DNA of 64,000 bases from Escherichia coli (GTDB lineage Bacteria > Pseudomonadota > Gammaproteobacteria > Enterobacterales > Enterobacteriaceae), in assembly GCF_002854065.1 (NCBI RefSeq), contig NZ_CP024147.1. The stretch is one strand, 5' to 3'. This document shows, piece by piece, positions 824-39,308 of this stretch. Within the stretch, counting starts at the first letter, position 1. Every line of letters begins with the position of its first letter. The notes below the pieces were generated by a model. The model was not told the DNA's origin and made no database searches. It saw only the letters and a program-made list of their open reading frames with translations. The translations under genes and the position numbers were made by a program.

Positions 824-1345
<522 letters not shown>

Positions 1346-1513
1346 GGGTAGAAATTAATCGCAACGCGCAGATTGCGAGCTGCATTCCACGAAATTTGTA
1401 AGGTTGTGAAGATAGCGTTTTTCACCGGAATCAGGTTAACAAATCAGCGCTCTCTCTGTTGCTGAGCATCCGGAGTTATTCGATGGTGATACTCCAATTA
1501 CAGAGGATGTTTT

Positions 1514-1981
1514 ATGGACACTACCCTTCCCTTTCTAATTTTGTACGCTTGTTTATCAGCCCTACTTTTTTTCTGGGATGCAAAGCATGGCTTGTTACCT
1601 GACAGATTTACGTGCCCGTTACTCTGGTCAGGTCTTTTGTTCTATCAAGTTTGTCATCCTGATGGTTTAGCCGATGCGTTATGGGGGGCAATTATTGGTT
1701 ACGGCACATTCGCTGTCATTTACTGGGGGTATCGCATACTGCGCCATAAAGAAGGATTAGGCTATGGTGATGTGAAGTTTCTCGCCGCCCTTGGCGCCTG
1801 GCATTCATGGGCCTTCTTACCACGACTGGTTTTCCTTGCTGCCTCATTCGCTTGCGGAGCCGTAGTTATTGGTCTGCTCATGAGAGGAAAAGAATCATTA
1901 AAAAACCCGCTGCCTTTTGGGCCATTTCTGGCGGCTGCGGGTTTCGTTATAGGCTGGGATAGTTTGCTGATAGGCCGTTAA
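1514..1981 (+). CDS. gspO: Short A24-family prepilin peptidase-like membrane protein (155 aa)
   Basis: ORF track 155 aa with multiple hydrophobic segments and LLPD and [16 protein letters not shown] motifs typical of the prepilin peptidase aspartyl protease domain; RBS gagga upstream; lies between rpsJ and bfr where K-12 carries the gsp cluster ending in gspO. Symbol is by position and similarity only. Confidence 0.7.
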
Positions 1982-2454
1982 TCTTTAACTTTAATTTGTG
2001 ATTGCAGGTAATTTTGTAGGTCGATTTTACCGATGAGATCCAGTTCAGTTTCGAGCCAGTCGATATGACCTTCTTCATCAGCAAGGATCTCGATCATCAT
2101 ATCGCGGCTAACATAGTCATGAACGCTGTCGGCATATGCGATAGCCTCACGCAGATCCTTCGCGCCTTCCAGCTCTAATCGCAGGTCGGATTGCAGCATC
2201 TCTTCGACATCTTCACCAATCCCCAGTTTGCCTAAATCCTGTAAGTTGGGGACTCCTTCTAAAAACAAAATACGCTCGATATACTTATCAGCGTGTTTCA
2301 TCTCATCGATGGATTCATGGTATTCAACGTCATTGAGACGCATCAGCCCCCAGTTTTTAAACATCCGGGCATGGAGAAAATACTGATTGATTGCGACAAG
2401 CTCATTTCCCAATAGTTTATTGAGATAATTTATGATTTTAACATCACCTTTCAT
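1978..2454 (-). CDS. bfr: Bacterioferritin
   Basis: ORF track 158 aa [37 protein letters not shown]... Confidence 0.95.
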
Positions 2455-2526
2455 TTTATAGTCCCTCCGCTTCCACTATTAGAGCGTAGATGGGGCTAGC
2501 TGGTTGTCAAAAAATAAGCGTGGGCT

Positions 2527-2721
2527 TCAAGCAATCTCTTTAAATTCTGGCATCTGCATCAACTCGTCCTGCATCACTTCGCGCGCGGCGCGAATGCACT
2601 TACCACATTGATTTCCCACAGGAATAAACTTACGCAATTGTTGGAAAGATTGCGGATGAAACTGACGGACTGCCTGGCGAATTTTTTTGTCACTTACACC
2701 ATTACACAAACAAACGTACAT
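2527..2721 (-). CDS. bfd: Bacterioferritin-associated ferredoxin
   Basis: ORF track 64 aa MYVCLCNGVSDKKIRQAV... with CxC...CGKC [2Fe-2S] motif; directly upstream of bfr. Confidence 0.9.
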   Translation of the reverse strand: MYVCLCNGVSDKKIRQAVRQFHPQSFQQLRKFIPVGNQCGKCIRAAREVMQDELMQMPEFKEIA

Positions 2722-2852
2722 GATTGCTCCCGTTCAAATTCTGCGCAAAGTGTAAATGAGAATAGTTATGATTACAATAGCACAGTTTTATTTGCGCCAT
2801 AGTTCAGCGAACAAAATTACGACTAAATATTTCGAGCTCAAATTACGGGCAG

Positions 2853-2877
2853 CAAAAAGGGCGCCGAAGCGCCCTTT
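2853..2877 (-). terminator. Rho-independent terminator downstream of tufA
   Basis: GC stem agggcgc/gcgccct with cgaa loop, followed on the minus strand by a T run. Confidence 0.6.
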
Positions 2878-2903
2878 ACAATTCAAAACTAATTAACGTG
2901 TAA

Positions 2904-4145
<1,242 letters not shown>

Positions 4146-4158
4146 TTAACCCTTAGGC

Positions 4159-6285
<2,127 letters not shown>

Positions 6286-6369
6286 TTATCTTTTAGGCGT
6301 TCAATTTAAGTAGCCCAAAGCGGGCTGCTTACTGGAAGCGCCCGCCTGGTGACTAAAACTCCGAAGGGA

Positions 6370-6855
<486 letters not shown>

Positions 6856-6936
6856 TTAATTCAGGATTGTCCAAAACTCTACGAGTTTAGTTTGACATTT
6901 AAGTTAAAACGTTTGGCCTTACTTAACGGAGAACCA

Positions 6937-7414
<478 letters not shown>

Positions 7415-7436
7415 GAAATATACAACGATCCCGCCA

Positions 7437-7724
7437 TCACCAGGCCATCTGGCTGGAGTGCTTAACCGTAAGTCTGACGAAATCAGTATAGTCAATGGGA
7501 ATGATGTCATTCGAAATTTGACCAGTCAAACCGCGGGCAATAAGGTCTTCGTTCAGGGCATAGACCTTAATGGGGGCATTACGCAGACTTTCAAGGTAGC
7601 GGTTACCGTCAACTGCGGCAGTTACGCCATCTTGCAATAATAGCAGTTCGTCGCCTTCACTGAGCAGACGCAGCAGCGCAGCAAAATCCGTCAGCCAGGG
7701 TGAACGATGTAACGTGTGCAGCAT
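7437..7724 (-). CDS. tusB: Sulfurtransferase complex subunit TusB
   Basis: ORF track 95 aa; position after tusC/tusD and before rpsL. Confidence 0.9.
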
Positions 7725-7731
7725 AAACGCC

Positions 7732-8090
7732 TCAAAACCTCAAAATAACATCGTAGTTGGCGAGTTCGCGGCGTAAGGCATCTGCTTCGAGCGGCGTGGC
7801 TTCGACAACAAAGGGGGTCTGCGGATCTAACCCGCGTTCGCGCAGTGAAGCCGCACAAACCCAGCACTGTTCAATGTCGTACAGACCCAACAATTTAAAA
7901 GTGGCAATGTAATCACGCGCCAGCACTGCATCGGGCTTTTGTCCTGGCAGTAGCTGAAAAACGCCATCAGCAATAAAGAAGACGGCCAGCTCGTCAGTTA
8001 ACGCGGAAGTTGCCAGTAAAGCATCTAAACCTTCCCGCCCGGCAGCGGTACCATGAGGCACAGTAGAAAAAACAAACGCAATTCGTTTCA

Positions 8091-8091
<1 letters not shown>
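7732..8091 (-). CDS. tusC: Sulfurtransferase complex subunit TusC
   Basis: ORF track 119 aa; DsrF-like; 1-nt overlap with tusD. Confidence 0.9.
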
Positions 8092-9199
<1,108 letters not shown>

Positions 9200-9324
9200 G
9201 AAAAAAAACACTCCTTTTCAGGAGCCTGTCGTTAACTTTTCAGGGCAGGCTCATTAATGATGCGGGTAACTAAATTAATACAGCGGAGGTTCCGCTTTCC
9301 AGCACTAATTATATCCGGCCTGTA

Positions 9325-9356
9325 ATAAAAAAACCGCCGCCTGGTCAGGCGGCGGT
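9325..9356 (-). terminator. Rho-independent terminator downstream of fkpA
   Basis: Stem ccgccgcc/ggcggcgg followed on minus strand by T7 run. Confidence 0.7.
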
Positions 9357-9365
9357 TCTTAATGC

Positions 9366-10178
9366 TTATTTTTTAGCAGAATCTGCGGCTTTCGCATCAG
9401 CTTCCGGCTTTGCATCAGCCTTCGGCGCTGGTTTCACATCCAGCAGCTCTACGTCAAACACCAGGGTAGAATTCGGTGGGATCCCCGGAACACCCGCTTT
9501 GCCGTAAGCCAGTTCTGGTGGAATAACCAGTTTGATCTTACCGCCTTTCTTGATGTTCTTCAGACCTTCTGTCCAACCCGGGATAACACCGTCCAGACGG
9601 AAAGAAAGCGGTTCACCACGGGTGTAAGAGTTGTCGAACTCTTTACCGTCGATCAGCGTACCTTTGTAGTTCACTACAACAGTATCGCTGTCTTTCGGTG
9701 CTTCGCCTTTACCGGCTTCTACTACCTGATAAACCAGACCAGTTGAAGAGGTTTTCACACCTTTCTCTTTGGCAAATTTCTCGCGGTACTCTTTACCTTT
9801 TGCTTCGTTATCAGCCGCGTCTTTTTCCATCTTCGCCTGAGCAGAAGACTTCACGCGAGCTTCGAATGCTTGCAGAGTCTGTTCGATCTCTTGGTCGGAG
9901 AGTTTGCTCTTATCAGCAAATGCATCCTGAACACCAGCGATCAGCTGATCTTTATCCAGTTTGATGCCCAGTTTTTCTTGTTCTTTTAGAGAGTTTTCCA
10001 TGTAACGACCCAGCGAGGCACCCAGTGCATAAGCTGATTTCTGATCGTCATTTTTGAACGCTGCTTTGCTGTCAGCAGTTGTAGCAGGTTTTGCAGCTTC
10101 AGCAGCAAAAGTGATTGGTGCATGCAGGGCAACGGCCATTGTGGTCGCCAGCAGCGTTACTTTAAACAGTGATTTCAT
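9366..10178 (-). CDS. fkpA: Periplasmic FKBP-type peptidyl-prolyl isomerase
   Basis: ORF track 270 aa with signal peptide and FKBP domain. Confidence 0.93.
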   Translation of the reverse strand: MKSLFKVTLLATTMAVALHAPITFAAEAAKPATTADSKAAFKNDDQKSAYALGASLGRYMENSLKEQEKLGIKLDKDQLIAGVQDAFADKSKLSDQEIEQTLQAFEARVKSSAQAKMEKDAADNEAKGKEYREKFAKEKGVKTSSTGLVYQVVEAGKGEAPKDSDTVVVNYKGTLIDGKEFDNSYTRGEPLSFRLDGVIPGWTEGLKNIKKGGKIKLVIPPELAYGKAGVPGIPPNSTLVFDVELLDVKPAPKADAKPEADAKAADSAKK

Positions 10179-10398
10179 CCATATCTCCAGGATCGGGGCA
10201 TCTCACCCCAGGGTTAACTATTATCAGAAGGGTACTATAAAGCGTTGTCGAACAAATCTACATACAGACACGCCCTATTATCATCTATTTTCAGACTCTT
10301 TTTGTTTAAATTAGTTTCGATGACCGCGAAATGAGTGCTGTCTCGGGCAGCAAAGTTAAGTAGAATCCGCGGCGACCATTCGACAAAAGAGGTGAATC

Positions 10399-10617
10399 AT
10401 GCAGGATTTATCATTGGAAGCACGCCTGGCAGAGCTGGAGAGCCGACTGGCTTTTCAGGAAATCACCATTGAAGAACTGAACGTCACGGTGACCGCTCAT
10501 GAAATGGAGATGGCGAAACTGCGCGATCATCTGCGTCTGCTGACCGAGAAGTTAAAAGCCAGCCAGCCGTCGAACATCGCGTCGCAGGCTGAAGAAACGC
10601 CACCGCCACATTATTGA
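10399..10617 (+). CDS. slyX: Protein SlyX
   Basis: ORF track 72 aa [31 protein letters not shown]... Confidence 0.9.
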
Positions 10618-10622
10618 GGCGT

Positions 10623-10650
10623 AAAAAAAGCGGGGATTCCCCGCTTTTTT
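10623..10650. terminator. Bidirectional rho-independent terminator between slyX and slyD
   Basis: aaaaaaagcgggga-t-tccccgctttttt palindrome flanked by A run and T run. Confidence 0.7.
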
Positions 10651-10665
10651 GTCACTTTTTCGGTA

Positions 10666-11256
10666 TTAGTGGCAACCGCAACCGCCGTTACCTTTACCGC
10701 CACAGCAGCCTTCGCCACCGTGCTCATGACCGTGATCATGGCCATGACCACCGCAGCAACCGTCGTGGTCGTGATCGTGGTGATGATCGTGCGCACCGTG
10801 AACGTGGCCATGAGCCAGCTCTTCTTCAGTCGCTTCGCGAATCGCCACAACTTCAACGTTGAATTTCAGGTTCTGACCGGCCAGCATGTGGTTACCATCA
10901 ACCACGACGTGATCGTCTTCAACCGCAGTGATTTCAACCGGTACCGGACCCTGGTCGGTTTCAGCCAGGAAACGCATACCTACCTGCAGTTCATCAACGC
11001 CCATAAATACGTCTTTAGGCACACGTTGCACCAGGTTTTCGTCGTACTGACCGTAAGCGTCGTTCGCGCCAACAGCGACATCAAATTTGTCGCCAACTTC
11101 ATGACCTTCCAGCGCCGTTTCCAGGCCAGAGATCAGGGAACCGTGACCATGCAGGTAGTCCAGCGGCGCACTCACCGGAGACTCATCAACCAACACACCG
11201 TCTTCTGTACGTACCTGATAGGCCAGGCTGACCACCAGGTCTTTTGCTACTTTCAT
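10666..11256 (-). CDS. slyD: FKBP-type peptidyl-prolyl isomerase / metallochaperone SlyD
   Basis: ORF track 196 aa MKVAKDLVVSLAYQVRTEDGVLVDESPVSAPLDYLHGHGSLISGLE... with His/Cys/Gly-rich C-terminal tail. Confidence 0.95.
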   Translation of the reverse strand: MKVAKDLVVSLAYQVRTEDGVLVDESPVSAPLDYLHGHGSLISGLETALEGHEVGDKFDVAVGANDAYGQYDENLVQRVPKDVFMGVDELQVGMRFLAETDQGPVPVEITAVEDDHVVVDGNHMLAGQNLKFNVEVVAIREATEEELAHGHVHGAHDHHHDHDHDGCCGGHGHDHGHEHGGEGCCGGKGNGGCGCH

Positions 11257-11350
11257 GATATCTCCTGAGCATGGGAAGAATAGTGGCGCAGATTGTAGCG
11301 GAATTCTGCAGCCGTGTACTCACTAGCTTAAAAAAACTCGGCGCATATCG

Positions 11351-11551
11351 CTAGTCCGGATGAAAAATCCCGATCACTTGCTCATCTTTGCGAACGTGAT
11401 CGCGGGCTTCTTTGTCTGCTTCTCGCATCTGGTGTCCGCACTTAACGCATTCAACAATATCAATATTATTTTCGCGCCACATCGCCATTGAATCCTGCGC
11501 CTGACAGGCCGGGCATTTTGCGCCCGCAATAAAACGTTTTCGGATTGCCAT
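11351..11551 (-). CDS. yheV: Small zinc-ribbon protein YheV
   Basis: ORF track 66 aa with CPAC...CVKCGH motifs. Confidence 0.85.
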   Translation of the reverse strand: MAIRKRFIAGAKCPACQAQDSMAMWRENNIDIVECVKCGHQMREADKEARDHVRKDEQVIGIFHPD

Positions 11552-11560
11552 CTTTACCCT

Positions 11561-13366
11561 CTACTCAAATTCATCCCAGCCGTCCAGCTGGCGTCGTTCT
11601 TGTTGCATTTCACGCTGGAAAATCTCTTCCAGTTCGCGTCGGGCTTCCCTGGCGCGAGAAATTTGTACGGTATCGGCATGCATTGGGATGAGCTCTCGCA
11701 GCATCCGCATATCCAGGCGGCGAAAATGCAGTTGCGCCCGCTGTGCCTGATGCGGATGCATGCCAAGCGTGACCAGCGTCTTGCGCCCCAGCTCTAACGC
11801 ACTGGAGAATGTTTCACGGGAAAACTGCGTCACCCCTGCCTGTAATAACTCATGCGCTTCCACACGTCCGCGCGCTCGCGCAAGAATATGCAAATGCGGA
11901 AAGTGCTGCTGGCATATTTCCACCAGCTTCATGGTGTCTTCCGGCTCGTTACAGGTAATGACGATAGACTCAGCGGCCTCTGCACCCGCAGAACGTAAAA
12001 GATCGACCTGCGTGGCATCACCGTAATAAACTTTGTAGCCATATTTGCGCATCAGGTTAACGGCGCTGATATCCCGCTCCAGCACGGTAATGCGCATTTT
12101 ATTTGCCATCAGCAAACGACCAATCACCTGCCCAAAACGCCCGAAACCGACCACAATCACCTGCGGTTTATCATCATTGACCCACGGTTTTTCGTCTTCT
12201 TCTTCCGGTCCGTTAAACTGGCGGGATAGCCATTTATCCACCAGCTTCATCAGCAACGGCGTGGTCATCATGGAAAGCGTCACCGTCACCAGCAACAGCG
12301 CCATCTGGTCGCCCTGGAATAAGCGTTGTGAAGAAGCGGTAGAAAAGAGCACAAAGGCAAACTCGCCGCCCTGACTCAACACGCCCGCAAACTGCATCCG
12401 CTCTGAGCTACGCACGCCATACAATCGCGCCAGCAGATACAACACGAGAATTTTCACCGCCACCAGCACAACCACGCTTATCACTACCCACAACAGATGG
12501 GTATAAAGCACCCCGAGATTGAGCGACATGCCGACAGAGATAAAGAACAAACCGAGCAGCAACCCCTTAAACGGATCGATAGCCGTTTCCAGTTCATGGC
12601 GATATTCACTTTCCGCCAGCAGCACGCCTGCAATAAACGTACCGAGCGCCATCGACAGCCCCAACGCATCCATAAACAATGCGGAACCCAATACCAGCAG
12701 CAGCGTCGCGGCGGTGAACACTTCCCGCACGCCAGAAGCTGCAATAAAACGGAATACCGGACGCAATAAATAGCGCCCGCCAATCAGCATGCCGACAAAC
12801 GCCAGCACCTTCATGCCGATCTTCATCCAGTCGAAATGTTCGTCTGCCGAACCCGCCAGCAACGGCACTAACACCAGTGCCGGGATCACCGCCAGATCCT
12901 GAAACAGCAGTACCGAAAACCCGAGCTGCCCGGATTCGCTGCGATTCATCCCTTTCTCACGCATCAATTGCAACGCCATTGCGGTCGAAGACATCGCAAG
13001 GCCAATGCCACCGACCACCGCCGCCTGCCAGGCGAAATCCGTCAGCATCAATAATCCCGCCAGCAACGCCGCGCTTAACAGCACCTGTGCCGCGCCTACG
13101 CCAAAAATCGAACGCCGCAGTTGCCAAAGCTTGGAGGGATTCAACTCAAGGCCGATGATAAACATCAGGAACACCACGCCGAGTTCCGAAAAGTGGAGGA
13201 TCTCATCGACGTCGCTAATAAACCCCAGCCCCCACGGGCCAATTGCAATCCCTGCCAGCAAATATCCCAACACAGCGCCAATACCCAGCCGCGATGCCAA
13301 CGGCACCGCAGCCACCGCCGCGAAGAGAAACAGCACTCCTGCAAGTAAAAAATCGGAACCTTCCAT
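11561..13366 (-). CDS. kefB: Glutathione-regulated K+ efflux antiporter KefB
   Basis: ORF track 601 aa; multi-TM N-terminus plus C-terminal KTN/Rossmann domain ([11 protein letters not shown]). Confidence 0.95.
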
Positions 13367-13920
13367 CAGCGGCCTCCTGGAGACAGCGGATTTGCCAGCC
13401 AGTCACCGTAGGCTCTGGCGTGGCTCGCCAGCTCCTGTGCGCTTTGCCGTCTCGCCCAATAAATAATGATGGGACTTAACCAATGCATCCGGCACATGCC
13501 CGCCGCCAGTTCAAAGGGGCGCAGGACATCGCTCATCGGGTAGCGATTCAACGCGTCATAACGGTAAGCACTTTCCGGCTCGCCGGTGGTAATCACACTA
13601 CGCCAGTACTTTCCCGCCAGTTGGTTTCCTCCCGGCCCGCTGGCAAAACCACGGCTTAATACCCGGTCCAGCCACTCTTTCAGTAGCGCCGGGCAGCTAT
13701 AGGTATAAAGAGGATGCTGAAAGACAATCACCTCGTGCTCGCGCAGTAATGCCTGCTCACGGGGGATATCAATAAAAAAATCGGGATAGTGCGCGTAAAG
13801 GTCGTGCACGGTAACATTGCTGAGCTGCGTGGCCGGTTTAAGCAGTACCCGGTTTGCCACCGAGTCCTGAGATTCCGGATGGGCATACAGCAGCAAAACT
13901 TTCGCTGGCTGAGACATCAT
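13366..13920 (-). CDS. kefG: KefB ancillary protein KefG (NAD(P)H quinone oxidoreductase-like)
   Basis: ORF track 184 aa [27 protein letters not shown]...; 1-nt overlap with kefB. Confidence 0.9.
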
Positions 13921-14047
13921 CCCCCTCCCGGTATGGTTTTTGTGTATAGTCGCTGTTTTGGGCTACCATTGCGCCCGGTGCGGCAGCTCGCCCATACATT
14001 ACATTATCATAATGATAAGTTAACATAGTCTGAACATACGGCACCTT

Positions 14048-15961
14048 ATGATTGTTTTCTCCTCGTTACAAATTCGTCGCGGCGTGCGCGTCCTGCTGGA
14101 TAATGCCACCGCCACCATCAACCCCGGGCAGAAAGTCGGCCTGGTGGGTAAAAACGGCTGTGGTAAATCTACCCTGCTGGCATTGCTGAAAAATGAAATC
14201 AGCGCCGACGGCGGCAGCTACACCTTTCCGGGAAGCTGGCAACTGGCGTGGGTGAATCAGGAAACGCCGGCGTTACCGCAAGCGGCGCTGGAATATGTCA
14301 TTGACGGCGACCGTGAATATCGTCAACTGGAAGCGCAGCTACACGACGCCAACGAACGTAACGACGGGCACGCCATTGCGACCATTCATGGCAAGCTGGA
14401 TGCTATTGACGCATGGAGTATTCGCTCCCGTGCCGCCAGCCTGCTGCACGGCCTCGGTTTCAGCAATGAACAACTGGAGCGCCCGGTAAGTGATTTTTCC
14501 GGGGGCTGGCGTATGCGTCTTAACCTTGCCCAGGCGCTGATTTGCCGTTCAGACTTGCTGCTGCTCGACGAACCGACTAACCACCTCGATCTCGATGCCG
14601 TTATCTGGCTGGAAAAATGGCTGAAGAGCTATCAGGGCACGCTGATCCTGATCTCTCACGACCGCGACTTCCTCGATCCGATCGTCGATAAAATTATTCA
14701 TATCGAACAACAAAGCATGTTCGAGTACACCGGCAACTACAGTTCGTTTGAAGTACAGCGCGCCACCCGTCTGGCGCAGCAACAAGCGATGTACGAAAGC
14801 CAGCAGGAACGCGTAGCGCATCTGCAAAGTTATATCGACCGTTTCCGTGCCAAAGCCACCAAAGCGAAGCAGGCCCAGAGCCGCATTAAGATGCTCGAGC
14901 GTATGGAGCTGATTGCCCCGGCGCACGTCGACAATCCGTTCCGCTTTAGCTTCCGCGCGCCGGAAAGTCTGCCAAATCCGTTACTGAAGATGGAAAAGGT
15001 CAGCGCAGGCTATGGCGATCGCATTATTCTCGACTCGATTAAACTGAATCTGGTCCCCGGTTCGCGCATTGGTCTGTTAGGCCGCAACGGCGCGGGTAAA
15101 TCGACATTAATCAAACTGTTAGCCGGTGAACTTGCGCCAGTCAGTGGTGAAATAGGCCTGGCAAAAGGGATCAAGCTCGGCTACTTCGCCCAGCATCAAC
15201 TTGAATACCTGCGCGCCGACGAATCGCCTATTCAACATCTGGCACGTTTAGCGCCGCAGGAACTGGAGCAAAAACTGCGTGACTACCTCGGCGGCTTTGG
15301 TTTCCAGGGCGATAAAGTAACCGAAGAAACGCGCCGCTTCTCCGGTGGGGAAAAAGCCCGCCTGGTGCTGGCATTAATCGTCTGGCAGCGTCCGAATCTG
15401 CTGCTGCTCGACGAACCGACTAACCACCTTGACCTTGATATGCGTCAGGCACTCACCGAAGCATTAATCGAGTTTGAAGGCGCGCTGGTTGTCGTTTCGC
15501 ACGACCGTCATTTGCTGCGTTCCACCACTGACGACCTCTACCTGGTTCACGATCGTAAAGTCGAACCGTTCGACGGCGATCTGGAAGATTATCAACAGTG
15601 GTTGAGCGACGTACAAAAGCAGGAAAACCAGACCGACGAAGCGCCAAAAGAGAACGCGAACAGCGCCCAGGCACGTAAAGATCAGAAGCGTCGGGAAGCG
15701 GAGTTGCGTGCGCAAACCCAGCCACTGCGTAAAGAGATTGCCCGTCTGGAAAAAGAGATGGAGAAGCTGAACGCGCAACTGGCGCAGGCAGAAGAGAAAC
15801 TCGGCGACAGCGAACTGTATGACCAGAGCCGTAAAGCGGAGTTGACCGCCTGCCTGCAACAGCAAGCCAGCGCCAAATCCGGCCTGGAAGAGTGCGAAAT
15901 GGCATGGCTGGAAGCCCAGGAGCAGCTTGAGCAGATGTTGCTGGAAGGCCAAAGCAACTGA
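14048..15961 (+). CDS. yheS: ABC-F family ATPase (two ABC cassettes, no membrane domain)
   Basis: ORF track 637 aa with two Walker A motifs (GKNGCGKST, GRNGAGKST) and two LSGG signatures plus coiled-coil C-terminus. Confidence 0.9.
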   Translation: MIVFSSLQIRRGVRVLLDNATATINPGQKVGLVGKNGCGKSTLLALLKNEISADGGSYTFPGSWQLAWVNQETPALPQAALEYVIDGDREYRQLEAQLHDANERNDGHAIATIHGKLDAIDAWSIRSRAASLLHGLGFSNEQLERPVSDFSGGWRMRLNLAQALICRSDLLLLDEPTNHLDLDAVIWLEKWLKSYQGTLILISHDRDFLDPIVDKIIHIEQQSMFEYTGNYSSFEVQRATRLAQQQAMYESQQERVAHLQSYIDRFRAKATKAKQAQSRIKMLERMELIAPAHVDNPFRFSFRAPESLPNPLLKMEKVSAGYGDRIILDSIKLNLVPGSRIGLLGRNGAGKSTLIKLLAGELAPVSGEIGLAKGIKLGYFAQHQLEYLRADESPIQHLARLAPQELEQKLRDYLGGFGFQGDKVTEETRRFSGGEKARLVLALIVWQRPNLLLLDEPTNHLDLDMRQALTEALIEFEGALVVVSHDRHLLRSTTDDLYLVHDRKVEPFDGDLEDYQQWLSDVQKQENQTDEAPKENANSAQARKDQKRREAELRAQTQPLRKEIARLEKEMEKLNAQLAQAEEKLGDSELYDQSRKAELTACLQQQASAKSGLEECEMAWLEAQEQLEQMLLEGQSN

Positions 15962-16983
15962 TGGCGCAGATAACGACGACCGATGCCAATGAATTCAGCA
16001 GCAGTGCTGAATTCACCCCTATGCGCGGCTTTAGCAATTGTCATCTGCAAACCATGCTGCCGCGTCTGTTTCGTCGCAAGGTGAAATTCACCCCGTACTG
16101 GCAGCGGCTGGAGTTGCCCGACGGCGATTTTGTCGATCTCGCGTGGAGTGAAGCCCCAGCACAGGCGCGGCATAAACCGCGTTTAGTGGTATTTCACGGG
16201 CTGGAAGGCAGTCTCAATAGCCCTTACGCCCACGGTCTGGTTGAGGCGGCGCAAAAGCGCGGCTGGCTGGGCGTGGTGATGCATTTTCGCGGATGCAGCG
16301 GTGAACCAAACCGTATGCACCGCATTTACCATTCGGGCGAAACCGAAGACGCCAGTTGGTTTTTACGCTGGCTGCAACGCGAGTTTGGTCATGCGCCAAC
16401 GGCTACCGTCGGCTATTCGCTCGGCGGTAATATGCTGGCCTGTTTGCTGGCAAAAGAAGGCAATGATCTCCCGGTTGATGCGGCGGTGATTGTCTCTGCG
16501 CCGTTTATGCTGGAGGCCTGTAGTTACCATATGGAAAAGGGCTTTTCCCGCGTTTATCAGCGTTACTTGCTGAACCTGTTAAAAGCCAATGCCGCACGCA
16601 AGCTGGCTGCCTACCCCGGAACGCTGCCGATAAATCTCGCGCAATTAAAATCGGTACGTCGCATCCGTGAATTTGACGATCTAATCACCGCCAGGATTCA
16701 CGGCTACGCTGACGCTATCGACTATTATCGTCAGTGTAGCGCCATGACGATGCTGAACCGGATCGCCAAACCGACGCTGATTATTCACGCCAAAGACGAT
16801 CCGTTTATGGATCATCAGGTGATCCCGAAACCGGAAAGTCTTCCCCCGCAGGTGGAGTATCAACTGACTGAACATGGCGGTCATGTTGGCTTTATTGGCG
16901 GTACATTACTTCATCCGCAAATGTGGCTGGAGTCACGCATTCCTGACTGGTTAACAACGTATCTGGAGGCGAAATCATGTTGA
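15961..16983 (+). CDS. yheT: Alpha/beta-hydrolase fold protein YheT
   Basis: ORF track 340 aa with GYSLGG nucleophile elbow motif. Confidence 0.85.
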
Positions 16984-17195
16984 TTCCGTGGCAAGACCTC
17001 TCCCCCGAAACGCTGGAAAATTTAATTGAAAGCTTTGTGTTACGTGAAGGCACCGATTATGGTGAACATGAGCGTACACTTGAACAGAAAGTCGCCGACG
17101 TCAAACGCCAGCTACAGTGCGGAGAAGCGGTGCTGGTATGGTCGGAGCTGCACGAAACGGTCAATATCATGCCGCGCAGTCAGTTTCGCGAATAA
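16977..17195 (+). CDS. yheU: UPF0270 protein YheU
   Basis: ORF track 72 aa [32 protein letters not shown]... Confidence 0.85.
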
Positions 17196-17248
17196 CCTGC
17201 AACCGTCGGCGGACGAGATAATAATGATAGCTAAGTCATGGAGTTACT

Positions 17249-18118
17249 ATGTCTGCCAAACATCCGGTCATTGCGGTAACAGGATCCAGCGGCGCGGGGA
17301 CCACCACCACCAGCCTCGCGTTTCGTAAAATATTCGCGCAGTTAAATCTGCATGCAGCCGAGGTGGAAGGTGACAGTTTTCACCGTTACACCCGCCCGGA
17401 AATGGACATGGCGATCCGCAAAGCGCGCGACGCCGGGCGGCATATCAGCTACTTCGGCCCCGAAGCGAACGACTTTGGCCTGCTGGAACAAACCTTCATT
17501 GAATATGGTCAGAGCGGCAAAGGGAAATCTCGCAAATATCTGCATACCTACGACGAAGCCGTACCCTGGAATCAGGTACCGGGAACATTCACCCCCTGGC
17601 AACCTTTACCAGAACCCACTGATGTACTGTTTTATGAAGGTTTACACGGCGGCGTAGTCACGCCACAGCATAACGTTGCGCAGCATGTGGACTTACTGGT
17701 CGGCGTGGTGCCTATCGTTAACCTTGAGTGGATTCAAAAACTGATCCGCGACACCAGCGAGCGCGGGCACTCACGAGAAGCAGTGATGGACTCAGTAGTG
17801 CGTTCAATGGAAGACTATATCAACTACATCACACCGCAGTTTTCCCGCACCCATCTTAACTTCCAGCGCGTTCCCACCGTCGACACTTCAAACCCGTTCG
17901 CGGCAAAAGGTATCCCGTCGCTGGATGAAAGCTTTGTGGTGATCCATTTTCGTAATCTGGAAGGGATCGATTTCCCCTGGCTGCTGGCGATGTTGCAAGG
18001 CTCATTCATTTCCCACATCAATACGTTAGTGGTGCCCGGCGGCAAAATGGGTCTGGCAATGGAATTAATTATGCTGCCGCTGGTGCAACGATTGATGGAA
18101 GGAAAGAAAATCGAGTAA
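17249..18118 (+). CDS. prkB: Phosphoribulokinase homologue
   Basis: ORF track 289 aa with P-loop VIAVTGSSGAGTTT. Confidence 0.9.
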   Translation: MSAKHPVIAVTGSSGAGTTTTSLAFRKIFAQLNLHAAEVEGDSFHRYTRPEMDMAIRKARDAGRHISYFGPEANDFGLLEQTFIEYGQSGKGKSRKYLHTYDEAVPWNQVPGTFTPWQPLPEPTDVLFYEGLHGGVVTPQHNVAQHVDLLVGVVPIVNLEWIQKLIRDTSERGHSREAVMDSVVRSMEDYINYITPQFSRTHLNFQRVPTVDTSNPFAAKGIPSLDESFVVIHFRNLEGIDFPWLLAMLQGSFISHINTLVVPGGKMGLAMELIMLPLVQRLMEGKKIE

Positions 18119-18130
18119 CTCTGCTATTAC

Positions 18131-18152
18131 GCCGGATAAAATACTATCCGGC
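18131..18152. terminator. Palindromic stem-loop between convergent prkB and yhfA (weak U-tract)
   Basis: gccggata-aaatac-tatccggc perfect inverted repeat. Confidence 0.35.
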
Positions 18153-18172
18153 TTCACAACGGGATAGTTAAA

Positions 18173-18577
18173 TCACGCGGCAACCACTTCATACGAGTGA
18201 GTAATATTCACCGCTTTTTCCAGCATCAACGCCACTGAACAATATTTCTCAGCAGAGAGATCAACCGCACGCGCAACCGCTGCGTCTTTCAGGTCGCGAC
18301 CGGTGACGATAAAATGCAGATTAATGTGCGTAAACAGGCGTGGTGCCTCTTCGCGGCGTTCAGAGGTCAATTTTACTTCACAATCGACCACATCCTGACG
18401 CCCTTTTTGCAGGATCGAAACCACATCGATGGCACTGCAACCACCCGCCGCCATCAACACCATTTCCATCGGACTTGGTGCTTTATCGCCTGAATTGCCG
18501 TCCATTAAAATCTGGTGACCAGAGGCAGATTCGCCCAGAAAAGTTAACCCTTCGACCCACTTCACTCGCGCTTGCAT
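18173..18577 (-). CDS. yhfA: OsmC-family protein YhfA
   Basis: ORF track 134 aa MQARVKWVEGLTFLGESASGHQILMDG... Confidence 0.85.
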   Translation of the reverse strand: MQARVKWVEGLTFLGESASGHQILMDGNSGDKAPSPMEMVLMAAGGCSAIDVVSILQKGRQDVVDCEVKLTSERREEAPRLFTHINLHFIVTGRDLKDAAVARAVDLSAEKYCSVALMLEKAVNITHSYEVVAA

Positions 18578-18878
18578 TTTTGCTACTCCACTGCGTCAAT
18601 TTTCCTGACAGAGTACGCGTACTAACCAAATCGCGCAACGGAAGGCGACCTGGGTCATGCTGAAGCGAGACACCAGGAGACACAAAGCGAAAGCTATGCT
18701 AAAACAGTCAGGATGCTACAGTAATACATTGATGTACTGCATGTATGCAAAGGACGTCACATTACCGTGCAGTACAGTTGATAGCCCCTTCCCAGGTAGC
18801 GGGAAGCATATTTCGGCAATCCAGAGACAGCGGCGTTATCTGGCTCTGGAGAAAGCTTATAACAGAGGATAACCGCGC
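18578..18878 (+). promoter_or_regulatory. crp promoter / long 5' leader region
   Basis: 300-bp non-coding interval upstream of crp, divergent from yhfA; individual sites not resolved here. Confidence 0.4.
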
Positions 18879-19511
18879 ATGGTGCTTGGCAAACCGCAAA
18901 CAGACCCGACTCTCGAATGGTTCTTGTCTCATTGCCACATTCATAAGTACCCATCCAAGAGCACGCTTATTCACCAGGGTGAAAAAGCGGAAACGCTGTA
19001 CTACATCGTTAAAGGCTCTGTGGCAGTGCTGATCAAAGACGAAGAGGGTAAAGAAATGATCCTCTCCTATCTGAATCAGGGTGATTTTATTGGCGAACTG
19101 GGCCTGTTTGAAGAGGGCCAGGAACGTAGCGCATGGGTACGTGCGAAAACCGCCTGTGAAGTGGCTGAAATTTCGTACAAAAAATTTCGCCAATTGATTC
19201 AGGTAAACCCGGACATTCTGATGCGTCTGTCTGCACAGATGGCGCGTCGTCTGCAAGTCACTTCAGAGAAAGTGGGCAACCTGGCGTTCCTCGACGTGAC
19301 GGGCCGCATTGCACAGACTCTGCTGAATCTGGCAAAACAACCAGACGCTATGACTCACCCGGACGGTATGCAAATCAAAATTACCCGTCAGGAAATCGGT
19401 CAGATTGTCGGCTGTTCTCGTGAAACCGTGGGACGCATTCTGAAGATGCTTGAAGATCAGAACCTGATCTCCGCACACGGTAAAACCATCGTCGTTTACG
19501 GCACTCGTTAA
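18879..19511 (+). CDS. crp: cAMP receptor protein CRP
   Basis: ORF track 210 aa [51 protein letters not shown]...; no deviation noticed from the canonical sequence as remembered. Confidence 0.97.
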
Positions 19512-19522
19512 TCCCGTCGGAG

Positions 19523-19555
19523 TGGCGCGTTACCTGGTAGCGCGCCATTTTGTTT
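19523..19555 (+). terminator. Rho-independent terminator after crp
   Basis: Stem tggcgcg...cgcgcca followed by ttttgttt. Confidence 0.6.
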
Positions 19556-21652
19556 CCCCCGATGTGGCGCAGACTGATTTATCACCCCGATATCAACTAT
19601 GCACTACGACAAACGCTGGTGCTATGTTTGCCCGTGGCCGTTGGGTTAATGCTTGGCGAATTACGATTCGGTCTGCTCTTCTCTCTCGTTCCTGCCTGTT
19701 GCAATATTGCGGGCCTTGATACGCCTCATAAACGTTTTTTCAAACGCTTAATCATTGGTGCGTCGCTGTTTGCCACCTGTAGCTTACTGACACAGCTGCT
19801 ACTGGCAAAAGATGTTCCCCTGCCCTTTTTGCTGACCGGATTAACGCTGGTACTTGGCGTCACTGCTGAGCTGGGGCCATTGCACGCAAAATTGCTTCCT
19901 GCATCGCTGCTCGCCGCCATTTTTACCCTCAGTCTGGCGGGATACATGCCGGTCTGGGAACCGTTGCTCATCTATGCGTTGGGCACTCTCTGGTACGGAT
20001 TGTTTAACTGGTTTTGGTTCTGGATCTGGCGTGAACAACCGCTGCGCGAGTCACTAAGTCTGCTGTACCGTGAACTGGCAGATTATTGTGAAGCCAAATA
20101 CAGCCTGCTTACCCAGCACACCGACCCTGAAAAAGCGCTGCCGCCGCTGCTGGTGCGCCAGCAAAAAGCGGTCGATCTAATTACCCAGTGCTATCAGCAA
20201 ATGCATATGCTTTCCGCGCAAAATAATACTGACTACAAGCGGATGCTGCGTATTTTCCAGGAGGCGCTGGATTTACAGGAACATATTTCGGTCAGTTTGC
20301 ATCAGCCGGAAGAGGTGCAAAAGCTGGTCGAGCGTAGCCATGCGGAAGAAGTTATCCGCTGGAATGCGCAAACCGTCGCCGCTCGCCTGCGCGTGCTGGC
20401 TGATGACATTCTTTACCATCGCCTGCCGACGCGTTTTACGATGGAAAAGCAAATTGGCGCACTGGAAAAAATCGCCCGCCAGCATCCGGATAATCCGGTT
20501 GGGCAATTCTGCTATTGGCACTTCAGCCGCATTGCCCGCGTGCTGCGCACCCAAAAACCGCTCTATGCGCGTGACTTACTGGCCGATAAACAGCGACGAA
20601 TGCCGTTACTTCCGGCGCTGAAAAGTTATCTGTCACTAAAGTCTCCGGCGCTACGCAATGCCGGACGACTCAGTGTGATGTTAAGCGTTGCCAGCTTGAT
20701 GGGCACCGCGCTACATCTGCCGAAGTCGTACTGGATCCTGATGACGGTATTGCTGGTGACGCAAAATGGCTATGGCGCAACCCGTCTGAGGATTGTGAAT
20801 CGCTCCGTGGGAACCGTGGTCGGGTTAATCATTGCGGGCGTGGCGCTGCACTTTAAAATTCCCGAAGGTTACACCCTGACCTTGATGCTGATTACCACCC
20901 TTGCCAGCTACCTGATATTGCGCAAAAACTACGGCTGGGCGACGGTCGGTTTTACTATTACCGCAGTGTATACCCTGCAACTGTTGTGGCTGAACGGTGA
21001 GCAGTACATCCTTCCGCGTCTTATCGATACCATTATTGGTTGTTTAATTGCTTTCGGTGGTACCGTCTGGCTGTGGCCGCAGTGGCAGAGCGGGTTATTG
21101 CGTAAAAACGCCCATGACGCTTTAGAAGCCTATCAGGAAGCGATTCGCTTGATTCTGAGCGAGGATCCGCAACCTACGCCACTGGCCTGGCAGCGAATGC
21201 GGGTAAATCAGGCACATAACACTCTGTATAACTCATTGAATCAGGCGATGCAGGAACCAGCGTTCAACAGCCATTATCTGGCAGATATGAAACTGTGGGT
21301 AACGCACAGTCAGTTTATAGTTGAGCATATCAATGCCATGACCACGCTGGCACGGGAACACCGGGCATTGCCACCTGAACTGGCACAAGAGTATTTACAG
21401 TCTTGTGAAATCGCCATTCAGCGTTGTCAGCAGCGACTGGAGTATGACGAACCGGGGAGTTCTGGCGATGCCAATATCATGGATGCGCCGGAGATGCAGC
21501 CGCACGAAGGCGCGGCAGGTACGCTGGAGCAGCATTTACAGCGGGTTATTGGTCATCTGAACACCATGCACACCATTTCGTCGATGGCATGGCGTCAGCG
21601 ACCGCATCACGGGATTTGGCTGAGTCGCAAGTTGCGGGATTCGAAGGCGTAA
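19550..21652 (+). CDS. yhfK: Inner-membrane protein YhfK (FUSC-like); start uncertain, alternative ATG at 19562
   Basis: ORF track 700 aa with many TM segments; first ATG overlaps the crp terminator so the in-frame ATG at 19562 (MWRRLIYHPD) may be the true start. Confidence 0.85.
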   Translation: MFPPMWRRLIYHPDINYALRQTLVLCLPVAVGLMLGELRFGLLFSLVPACCNIAGLDTPHKRFFKRLIIGASLFATCSLLTQLLLAKDVPLPFLLTGLTLVLGVTAELGPLHAKLLPASLLAAIFTLSLAGYMPVWEPLLIYALGTLWYGLFNWFWFWIWREQPLRESLSLLYRELADYCEAKYSLLTQHTDPEKALPPLLVRQQKAVDLITQCYQQMHMLSAQNNTDYKRMLRIFQEALDLQEHISVSLHQPEEVQKLVERSHAEEVIRWNAQTVAARLRVLADDILYHRLPTRFTMEKQIGALEKIARQHPDNPVGQFCYWHFSRIARVLRTQKPLYARDLLADKQRRMPLLPALKSYLSLKSPALRNAGRLSVMLSVASLMGTALHLPKSYWILMTVLLVTQNGYGATRLRIVNRSVGTVVGLIIAGVALHFKIPEGYTLTLMLITTLASYLILRKNYGWATVGFTITAVYTLQLLWLNGEQYILPRLIDTIIGCLIAFGGTVWLWPQWQSGLLRKNAHDALEAYQEAIRLILSEDPQPTPLAWQRMRVNQAHNTLYNSLNQAMQEPAFNSHYLADMKLWVTHSQFIVEHINAMTTLAREHRALPPELAQEYLQSCEIAIQRCQQRLEYDEPGSSGDANIMDAPEMQPHEGAAGTLEQHLQRVIGHLNTMHTISSMAWRQRPHHGIWLSRKLRDSKA

Positions 21653-30587: not shown

Positions 30588-31961
30588 GTGGATCATTTGC
30601 CTATATTTTGCCAATTACGCAATCGCGACTGTCTGATTGTCGGCGGTGGTGATGTCGCGGAACGCAAAGCAAGGTTGCTGTTAGACGCAGGCGCTCGCTT
30701 AACGGTGAATGCATTAGCGTTTATTCCACAGTTCACCGCATGGGCAGATGCAGGCATGTTAACCCTCGTCGAAGGGCCATTTGATGAAAGCCTTCTCGAC
30801 ACCTGCTGGCTGGCGATTACAGCGACGGATGATGACGCGCTTAACCAGCGCGTCAGCGAAGCCGCTGAAGCTCGTCGCATCTTCTGTAACGTGGTCGATG
30901 CGCCGAAAGCCGCCAGCTTCATTATGCCGTCGATTATTGACCGCTCACCGCTGATGGTGGCGGTTTCCTCTGGCGGTACTTCTCCGGTTCTGGCGCGCCT
31001 GTTGCGCGAAAAACTCGAATCACTGCTGCCGCTGCATCTGGGCCAGGTAGCGAAATACGCCGGGCAGTTACGCGGTCGGGTAAAACAACAGTTCGCCACG
31101 ATGGGTGAACGCCGCCGCTTCTGGGAAAAACTGTTCGTTAACGACCGTCTGGCGCAGTCGCTGGCGAACAACGATCAGAAAGCCATTACTGAAACCACCG
31201 AACAGTTAATCAACGAACCGCTCGACCATCGTGGTGAAGTGGTGCTGGTTGGTGCAGGTCCGGGCGATGCCGGGCTGCTGACACTGAAAGGTCTGCAACA
31301 AATTCAGCAGGCAGATGTGGTGGTCTACGACCGTCTGGTTTCTGACGATATTATGAATCTGGTACGCCGCGATGCGGATCGTGTTTTCGTCGGCAAACGC
31401 GCGGGATACCACTGCGTACCGCAGGAGGAGATTAACCAGATCCTGCTGCGGGAAGCGCAAAAAGGCAAACGCGTGGTGCGGCTGAAAGGCGGCGATCCGT
31501 TTATTTTTGGCCGTGGTGGCGAAGAGCTGGAAACACTGTGCAACGCGGGTATTCCGTTCTCGGTGGTTCCGGGTATTACCGCAGCTTCTGGTTGCTCTGC
31601 CTATTCGGGTATTCCGCTCACGCATCGCGATTATGCCCAGAGCGTGCGCTTAATTACCGGACACTTAAAAACCGGTGGCGAGCTGGACTGGGAAAACCTG
31701 GCGGCAGAAAAACAGACGCTGGTGTTCTATATGGGGCTGAATCAGGCTGCGACTATTCAGCAAAAGCTGATTGAACACGGTATGCCTGGCGAAATGCCGG
31801 TAGCAATTGTCGAAAACGGAACAGCAGTCACGCAGCGCGTGATTGACGGTACGCTCACACAACTGGGCGAACTGGCGCAGCAAATGAACAGTCCATCGCT
31901 AATTATTATTGGTCGGGTTGTTGGCCTGCGCGATAAACTAAACTGGTTCTCCAACCATTAA
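30588..31961 (+). CDS. cysG: Sirohaem synthase (multifunctional)
   Basis: ORF track 457 aa; N-terminal NAD-binding domain plus C-terminal SAM methyltransferase domain ([10 protein letters not shown]). Confidence 0.95.
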
Positions 31962-38145: not shown

Positions 38146-39308
38146 TACGCCTCCAGAGAGTTTCCAAGACTGTCATAACGACCGACAATTTCCGGTTCGC
38201 CACGCTGAATACCCGATACCAACACCACATCACTGCGGGTAACAAAAATCTGCGTACGAAAACAGAACACTACGGCACTACTCACCGGAAACTCGCCTGC
38301 TAACGGCAGGTAATAGTCGATACTGCTGTCATCCACAGTTTTGAGATTTGTTTCAGTAATCTTTTGATTTTCTGGCGTAAACACCAGCGCATGTTGCGCA
38401 TGACCACGACGGTAATAACCGCCGCCGTAGCAGTAGCTGTCGCCACGGAAATGGTGGGAAATTTCACTTAACCAAAGCATCGCGATACGTTCAGGCTGAT
38501 CGCCCTGCTGGTTTGCCGGAATTGTGCCCGTCAGCGCATGACCGGGTTCGGCATGAGTCACACCGTATTGCGCCAGCAATGGCAACGAAGTGCAGCTGGT
38601 CGCAGAAGGTGCGTTCAGTTGCTCAATCGCAATACCAGATTTCGCCAGTTGATCCCGTGCCTGTATCAGCGTGTGAAGATTCGGTGTCGGCAAAACTTTC
38701 CCGGCAGCCTCATCCCAAAGCAGGCAAGGGAAATGGGTTAGTCCGGCTAAATGCAGCCCCGGCAGTTTCTTAATTTCAGCAACCACCTCGTGCAGCGAAT
38801 GCTGTACAAAACCGCTCTCCTGCCCCGGATAAAGAAAATCATCGTCGCTATAAACTTTGAGCAGCACAGACTGGATTCGCCCGGCTTTCACCGCCGCCGC
38901 AGAAACTTCCCGCGCTTTGTCGAGAGTAAACACGGTGATGACGTCGGTGCCCTGTTCAACGGCGTCAGCAACCTGATGACAAGGGATTTGTACCAGATGC
39001 CCCTGATGCGCCACCGGCAAACCAGCGCGGCGCATGACTCGCGCCTCTTTGTAATCCACCGCCACAATGCCGCTGTAGCCCAACGCCAGCAGTTTTTCCG
39101 CCAGCCATGGGTTACGACCGAATTGTTTGGTCATCAGATACAGTTCAATGCCGTAAAGCCGCGCCGTCTCAATCTGCCGCTTACCGTTTTCCAGTATCTG
39201 ATCCACGTCGATCACCCAGCTGTCCGGGGCGATCTTGCCCTGCTGCCACAGACTTAAAGCGGCGGAAATCAGCGCCGGGTTCTGGCGTTTCAATGCTTCT
39301 ACAAACAT
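38145..39308 (-). CDS. yhfX: Alanine-racemase-fold (fold type III PLP) protein YhfX
   Basis: ORF track 387 aa [42 protein letters not shown]... Confidence 0.85.

Follow-up and report, generated by a model that had tools for sequence, protein, structure and literature searches.

A tufA terminator and a predicted Fur-repressed bfd promoter in the tufA–bfd intergenic region of the chiA-less Escherichia coli haplotype

The 64-kb stretch of E. coli DNA analysed here (hereafter the window) carries a compact locus in the order rpsJ, short prepilin peptidase gene, bfr, bfd and tufA, with neither gspA–M nor chiA (Table 1). Positions 1100–4300 are 100% identical to E. coli strain 100416, and a search against Rfam returned no RNA family within these positions at E ≤ 1. 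With the bfd start codon at 2721 and the tufA stop codon, TAA, at 2904–2906, the two genes are separated by a spacer of 182 bp (2722–2903), which has a GC content of 38% compared with 52% for the window. The prepilin peptidase comprises a complete Peptidase_A24 domain without the approximately 70 N-terminal residues of GspO, and its gene converges on bfr with a 4-bp overlap at the bfr 3′ end. Since orthologues with 50–65% identity adjoin rpsJ in Citrobacter, Kluyvera, Pluralibacter, Raoultella, Enterobacter and others, including many genera without a T2SS, this gene seems to be an orphan that has been maintained, not something left over from a recent deletion.

Table 1. Features of the rpsJ–tufA region, in window coordinates, and Fur ChIP-exo peaks of two other strains placed on them
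Feature	Position	Strand	Evidence or remark
rpsJ	824–1135	-	ORF list and RefSeq annotation
Short haplotype of the rpsJ–tufA interval, 1532 bp	1320–2851	.	alignment against K-12
Prepilin peptidase gene, short, hopD-like, 155 aa	1514–1981	+	Pfam Peptidase_A24, full domain; hopD in the Sakai annotation; sits at the place of K-12 gspO
bfr, bacterioferritin, 158 aa	1978–2454	-	Pfam Ferritin, E=1e-37; 138/158 aa identical to K-12 Bfr
bfd, bacterioferritin-associated [2Fe-2S] ferredoxin, 64 aa	2527–2721	-	Pfam Fer2_BFD, E=1e-15; RefSeq WP_000289090.1; 56/64 aa identical to K-12 Bfd
bfd Shine–Dalgarno sequence, GGGAG	2727–2731	-	sequence; conserved
bfd promoter, predicted -10 hexamer TACACT, 17 bp from -35	2749–2754	-	sequence; conserved across genera
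Fur box, 19-mer AATGAGAATAGTTATGATT (+ strand); 7-1-7 core 2757–2771	2755–2773	.	PWM, conservation, ChIP-exo peaks of 042 and W
Fur ChIP-exo peak of 042 at bfd (042 3816258–3816270)	2755–2767		34–46 bp upstream of bfd ATG; Gao 2023, PMC10164565, mapped here
Fur ChIP-exo peak of W at bfd (W 3667868–3667880)	2764–2776		43–55 bp upstream of bfd ATG; Gao 2023, PMC10164565, mapped here
bfd promoter, predicted -35 hexamer TTGTAA	2772–2777	-	sequence; TTGTAA/TTGAAA in 15 or more genera
Spacer part without K-12 counterpart	2779–2851	.	sequence alignments; conservation not beyond Citrobacter
Right-hand haplotype breakpoint	2851–2852	.	99.8% K-12 identity begins at 2852, right after the terminator
tufA intrinsic terminator	2852–2877	-	inverted repeat, RNA fold
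tufA (EF-Tu) CDS	2904–4088	-	ORF list; RefSeq annotation of strain 100416; 99.8% identical to K-12 tufA
fusA	4159–6273	-	ORF list and RefSeq annotation

The first-pass annotation of this DNA had stated that K-12 carries chiA between bfd and tufA and that the window does not. The gene order of NC_000913.3 (rpsJ-gspBA-gspC..O-bfr-bfd-chiA-tufA), in which 3153 bp lie between the tufA stop codon and the bfd ATG, bears this out. When aligned with the K-12 region by blastn, as that annotation had suggested, the window resolves into three segments, with 100% identity up to position 1319 (rpsJ and its leader), only 78% over 1994–2778 (bfr, bfd and the 57 bp immediately preceding bfd) and 99.8% from 2852 onward (tufA terminator, tufA and fusA). 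The 73 bp at 2779–2851 have no counterpart in K-12 and align with Citrobacter. Taken over the whole interval, the 1532-bp cassette of the window (1320–2851) stands in place of a K-12 cassette of 16,638 bp containing gspBA-gspC..O-bfr-bfd-chiA (positions 3456–20093 of the K-12 locus, L001), and the Bfr and Bfd proteins of the two share 87% and 87.5% amino acid identity, respectively. Because near-identical flanks enclose bfr and bfd genes of just 78% identity and a segment foreign to K-12, the absence of chiA is part of an alternative haplotype of the whole interval and not a local deletion relative to K-12.

Among 5426 complete E. coli genomes, the bfd–spacer–tufA junction of the window is present in 2255 (42%) and the K-12 bfd–chiA junction in 3157 (58%), with about 14 carrying neither; 3174 genomes of the long type match the junction query just from its position 326, which corresponds to window position 2852. 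O157:H7 Sakai, EAEC 042 and W share the rpsJ-hopD-bfr-bfd-tufA architecture and the 182-bp spacer. Over the 377 bp of bfd plus spacer, they show point differences only (3 substitutions in Sakai, 10 in 042), and the Bfd protein of 042 and W is that of the window (WP_000289090.1). CFT073 (B2), which was expected to have the short haplotype, was found to carry the long, K-12 arrangement. A presence–absence polymorphism of T2SS-alpha and chiA in E. coli was reportedly described by Francetic in 2000. The T2SS-alpha and its substrate ChiA are absent in W, B1 strains and O157:H7 (PMC3032704, PMC3707838), and the window represents this 'absent' state. In a mastitis GWAS, gsp/chiA was treated as an accessory cluster, and bfr and bfd were listed as 'accessory' and co-varying (Olson 2024, PMC11390585). 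These papers deal with gene loss or an accessory cluster, whereas the window shows an interval with a bfr-bfd allele of its own, diverged by 22%, of which we found no mention in the T2SS-alpha/chiA literature searched. E. coli is dimorphic at this locus, and the lack of chiA is one of two standing states rather than a lesion.

Across Enterobacterales, the short architecture prevails. Among the 59 loci in which tufA can be seen upstream, most have a tufA–bfd spacer of 120–350 bp, like the window. chiA and T2SS (gsp) genes surround bfr-bfd in a scattered minority, namely Enterobacter sichuanensis, an Enterobacter MAG, two Trabulsiella species, Kosakonia oryziphila (gspO only), the uncultured lineage UBA5654 and an E. 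coli-like MAG. T2SS genes (gspM and a full-length gspO-like gene) also lie by bfr in Citrobacter amalonaticus S646 and C. braakii (L020, L023) and in Rahnella (L071, L074). All four of these loci have a direct tufA–bfd junction of 146–185 bp without chiA, so linkage of chiA with the T2SS is not universal at this place.

The two E. coli alleles have different nearest relatives. The bfd-bfr region of the window, together with the spacer, matches Citrobacter at 84–86% identity along almost the full length. The K-12 bfd-bfr region is at most 81% identical to every named genus and 82.5% identical to UBA5654; its only close match (98.6%) is an E. coli-like MAG labelled Citrobacter (L044). We calculated a neighbour-joining tree from 621 nt of bfr plus bfd with 300 bootstrap replicates, which is a simple method applied to a short alignment, with loci from a scan that recovered no Salmonella and no other Escherichia species. 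In this tree, the two E. coli alleles grouped together in 0% of the replicates, the window allele grouped with Citrobacter in 93%, the K-12 allele with UBA5654 in 93%, and nine chiA/T2SS-associated alleles formed one group in 60%; neither the Kosakonia nor the Enterobacter alleles were monophyletic in any replicate (0% each). GC content (48.8% for the long cassette, 44.4% for the short one and 52.2% for the window) marks neither cassette as foreign.

Based on these comparisons, we would give even odds to an rpsJ–tufA interval of E. coli that is occupied by one of two anciently diverged cassettes, hopD′-bfr-bfd or gspAB-gspC..O-bfr-bfd-chiA, the shared genes of which are 22% apart. We hypothesise, with confidence that is evenly balanced, that the short cassette was inherited vertically and that the long cassette of K-12 may be a block moving between enterobacterial genera with its own bfr-bfd and Fur-regulated promoter. 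Exchange of such a block would proceed by homologous recombination, with the ultra-conserved rpsJ leader and tufA terminator as anchors. The reverse polarity, in which the long chiA/T2SS-alpha cassette is the vertical Escherichia state and the short one was imported from a Citrobacter-like donor via rpsJ/tufA recombination, appears unlikely to us. On its side are the majority of the long type in E. coli, the presence of this type in the early-branching B2 group (e.g. CFT073), the approximately 85% identity of the short allele to Citrobacter, at which no recent donor is identified, and the scan described above, in which other Escherichia species and Salmonella did not appear. However, Escherichia, Salmonella and Citrobacter are close relatives, and the grouping of the short allele with Citrobacter is what the species tree predicts, while the K-12 allele groups with an unrelated uncultured Enterobacteriaceae lineage and with chiA/T2SS loci of other genera, and the short architecture is shared across the order.

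The same data render it highly improbable that the short haplotype arose by simple deletion of chiA, and separately of gspA–gspM, from a K-12-like ancestor. This scenario would account for the near identity of both flanks with K-12 and for the alignment of the short prepilin peptidase to the C-terminal two thirds of GspO, and Archer et al. 2011 (PMC3032704) describe the W locus as a deletion, the phrase used being 'gspO-rpsJ deletion'. In contrast, the 78% DNA identity of bfr-bfd is far beyond within-species divergence, and its occurrence in 2255 independent complete genomes excludes an assembly artefact. Moreover, hopD′ is about 41% identical to K-12 GspO compared with 50–65% to the short gene of Citrobacter and Kluyvera, the 73 bp at 2779–2851 match Citrobacter, and the two E. 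coli alleles came together in 0 of 300 bootstrap trees. We thus retain the view of an alternative haplotype, the right-hand breakpoint of which lies within the tufA–bfd spacer.

At the tufA side of this spacer, the presence of the tufA terminator, which had been claimed in the first-pass annotation, was confirmed by an inverted-repeat search. The stem (AAAGGGCGC / GCGCCCTTT at 2869–2877 / 2856–2864) is 9 nt long and 100% complementary, includes 6 G-C pairs and encloses the 4-nt loop TTCG, with the T-run lying partly within the 3′ arm. In the transcript, AAAGGGCGC-UUCG-GCGCCCUUU followed by UU can form this hairpin 27 nt after the tufA stop codon, which places a GC-rich hairpin with UUUUU close behind the last gene of the operon, as in intrinsic terminators. 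RNA folding of positions 2840–2906 (67 nt) yielded -18.2 kcal/mol for the whole stretch, with the terminator hairpin as the main stem. A simple promoter/terminator scanner did not list the tufA terminator because the stem absorbs the T-run. The terminator falls in the part shared with K-12 at 99.8%, and the haplotype breakpoint is located directly behind it.

On the bfd side, a conserved block consists of TTGTAA, the 17-bp spacer TCATAACTATTCTCATT, TACACT, the GGGAG Shine–Dalgarno sequence and the ATG. We interpret this block as a putative sigma-70 promoter with a Fur operator as its spacer, since the 17 bp are almost wholly made up of a 7-1-7 Fur box (TCATAACTATTCTCA), the centre of which (2764) lies 43 bp upstream of the bfd ATG. 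The predicted hexamers are weak (4/6 matches each), and with 8/12 matches the promoter remained below the threshold of the promoter scanner, which did not list it. The AT-rich motif upstream of bfd that had first drawn attention (gagaatagttatgattacaat) lies at 2758–2778, one base off the place implied in the accompanying text, and overlaps the core of the Fur box. Its designation as a palindrome is loosely true: the half-sites are symmetric at 4 of 7 positions, and no inverted repeat was reported there.

When matches to a consensus were counted, the site agreed with GATAATGATAATCATTATC at 13 of 19 positions, in each of two registers offset by 6 bp, and with the 7-1-7 model at 11 of 14, a level also reached by three other sites in the window. 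Consensus counting (19-mer, 7-1-7 and ChIP-exo motif) was dropped, as the site tied with two to three others in the window, and because this procedure was not discriminating, a position weight matrix (PWM) was used. The PWM is symmetric, spans 19 bp and was derived from 13 K-12 Fur sites that had been footprinted or gel-shifted, except for sufA and ydiE, which are supported by Fur-regulon expression studies; the site coordinates were taken from Table 4 of Chen et al. 2007 (PMC2189734), and the sequences were retrieved and inspected by eye. With 21.1 bits, positions 2755–2773 (AATGAGAATAGTTATGATT) rank first among the 63,982 positions of the window, 7.7 bits above the runner-up (13.4 bits). Leave-one-out scores of the 13 training sites range from 18.0 to 28.2 bits (mean 22.0), so that the score lies in the range of validated sites and the wording of the first-pass annotation, according to which the motif 'loosely resembles' a Fur box, understates the likeness. 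Only 3 of 20,000 first-order Markov resamples of the spacer attained at least 21.1 bits. The box is flanked by weak sites centred at 2758 (2.6 bits) and 2770 (4.9 bits), and the 6-bp register between them and the box is typical of Fur clusters.

Other matches in the window lie in different settings. The runner-up is situated at 31895–31913, near the 3′ end of cysG as judged by synteny with CFT073, and the third-best PWM match (2419–2437, 10.5 bits, ATTGAGATAATTTATGATT) falls within the 5′-terminal part of the bfr coding sequence, its centre lying 26 nt behind the start codon. At 38828–38846, inside a gene that is yhfY-like, again by synteny, 15 of 19 positions agree with the classical 19-mer.

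The bfd site of K-12 is reportedly named in the Fur regulon study of McHugh (2003). With our PWM, the homologous K-12 site scores 21.6 bits at -40, where a Fur cluster of 20.2 bits had been listed for K-12 bfd (Chen 2007, PMC2189734). The two sites occupy orthologous places (centre at -43 in the window, -40 in K-12), are identical at 16 of 19 bases, differing by three substitutions, and are both embedded in a predicted TTGxAA-N17-TAxxxT promoter. Upstream of the -35 hexamer the sequences are unrelated, as K-12 continues into the chiA 3′ end and the window into the tufA terminator. Comparable likeness was seen with the footprinted Fur box of the fecI promoter (TATGAGAATGGTTATCATT), which matches the window site at 16 of 19 positions including the unusual TGAGAAT half-site. 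However, fecI is another gene of another regulon branch and has more overlapping sites (a cluster of 7 walkers; Chen 2007, PMC2189734).

For conservation of the box, species-representative genomes were searched with the Bfr of the window, which resulted in 80 Enterobacterales loci; bfd was located in 77 of them, and the best matrix match in the 250 bp upstream of bfd was recorded. In 70 of the 77 loci, the best site scores at least 10 bits (mostly 17–25) and is centred 40–57 bp upstream of the ATG; the other seven, all from Xenorhabdus, have their best site about 91–129 bp upstream of bfd. Citrobacter, Phytobacter, Buttiauxella, Atlantibacter and Franconibacter have exactly the same 19-mer. 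In an ATG-anchored alignment, the -35 hexamer, box, -10 hexamer and Shine–Dalgarno sequence appear as a single conserved block, and conservation stops abruptly upstream of it. In many draft assemblies, the contig ends close upstream of bfd, within a few hundred bp, where tufA has its 3′ end (loci whose contig range begins at 1), presumably due to collapse of the tufA/tufB duplication in short-read assemblies; these breaks incidentally confirm the adjacency of bfd and tufA in the respective genomes.

Fur binding has been mapped by ChIP-exo in nine strains (Gao et al. 2023, PMC10164565). We placed the bfd peaks of two of these strains, 042 and W, on the window via their collinear loci, and both coincide with the box, which demonstrates Fur occupancy in vivo in strains that share the haplotype. 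The Sakai peak coordinates did not fit the locus exactly, probably because the study relied on an older version of the sequence record. A base-by-base comparison of 042 with the window showed collinearity without indels over 377 bp, and the sole change in the 042 box, G for A at 2764, affects the central position of the 7-1-7 model, which is uninformative; the Fur box of Sakai is identical to that of the window. [quoted passage not shown] The peaks and the mutant data from the literature agree with the earlier suggestion that the box would fit iron regulation of bfd. That the motif is mere promoter or AT-rich intergenic DNA without a functional Fur operator is hardly credible, for although the spacer is AT-rich, consensus counting finds three equal matches elsewhere in the window and the overlap with the promoter spacer could explain the conservation for promoter reasons alone, the PWM score stands far above anything else in 64 kb, ChIP-exo peaks fall on the motif in two strains of the haplotype, bfd is derepressed in fur mutants, and 17-bp promoter spacers are normally not sequence-constrained, while here the spacer is the most conserved part.

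For 042, W and Sakai, all of the short haplotype, a further Fur ChIP-exo peak was reported under the label 'bfr, intergenic' (Gao 2023, PMC10164565). It is located 141–149 bp downstream of the bfd promoter peak, corresponding to window positions 2614–2627 inside the bfd coding sequence, and by the PWM the entire bfd coding region lacks a Fur-like motif scoring more than 3 bits. A single peak was reported for CFT073, BL21, Crooks and W3110, which are of the K-12 type, and also for KO11FL, a derivative of the short-haplotype strain W (Gao 2023, PMC10164565). The second peak within bfd is not explained by the promoter-box model.

Taking these findings together, we estimate a probability of about 90% that the interval is the ordinary tufA–bfd intergenic region of the chiA-less (T2SS-alpha-less) haplotype, consisting of the tufA terminator and, behind it, a Fur-repressed bfd(-bfr) promoter. 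We propose the following hypothetical sequence of events along the minus strand, on which the tufA hairpin, the non-conserved 73-bp spacer and the promoter TTGTAA-N17-TACACT with its Fur box follow one another: (i) the tufA hairpin and U-tract would end transcription of the str operon ahead of the bfd promoter and insulate this promoter from the very strongly expressed operon; (ii) under iron-sufficient conditions, Fe(II)-Fur dimers would occupy the box at 2755–2773 and the weak neighbouring sites in the 6-bp register; (iii) bound Fur would exclude RNA polymerase from the bfd promoter; (iv) when iron is scarce, Fur would be released and Bfd produced, which would dock on bacterioferritin and pass electrons via the Bfr haem, freeing the stored iron. 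Reductive iron release from bacterioferritin via Bfd is established biochemistry (review PMC7762939). Occlusion as the mode of repression is what we infer from the geometry of the site, and the promoter hexamers and transcription start site are likewise predictions.

In summary, published work already covers the regulation of bfd by Fur, the tufA terminator and the polymorphism of T2SS-alpha/chiA, and all three are confirmed here with exact coordinates; the view of the chiA-less locus as an allelic replacement is the only, mildly, new element. The diverged bfr-bfd allele probably explains the 'accessory' status of these genes in the mastitis GWAS, and orthology tables and pan-genome GWAS can misreport the bfr and bfd genes of chiA-less strains as accessory (PMC11390585). 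K-12-centred regulatory annotation is transferable to approximately 42% of E. coli by position only, not by sequence identity. The locus would also offer a compact example of how cassettes are exchanged between anchor points in highly conserved translation genes. If E. coli indeed harbours two anciently diverged cassettes at this place, 'presence' signals of bfr and bfd in pan-genome GWAS would represent hitch-hiking allelic variants, and the two Bfr/Bfd pairs, with an amino acid divergence of 13%, might differ functionally.
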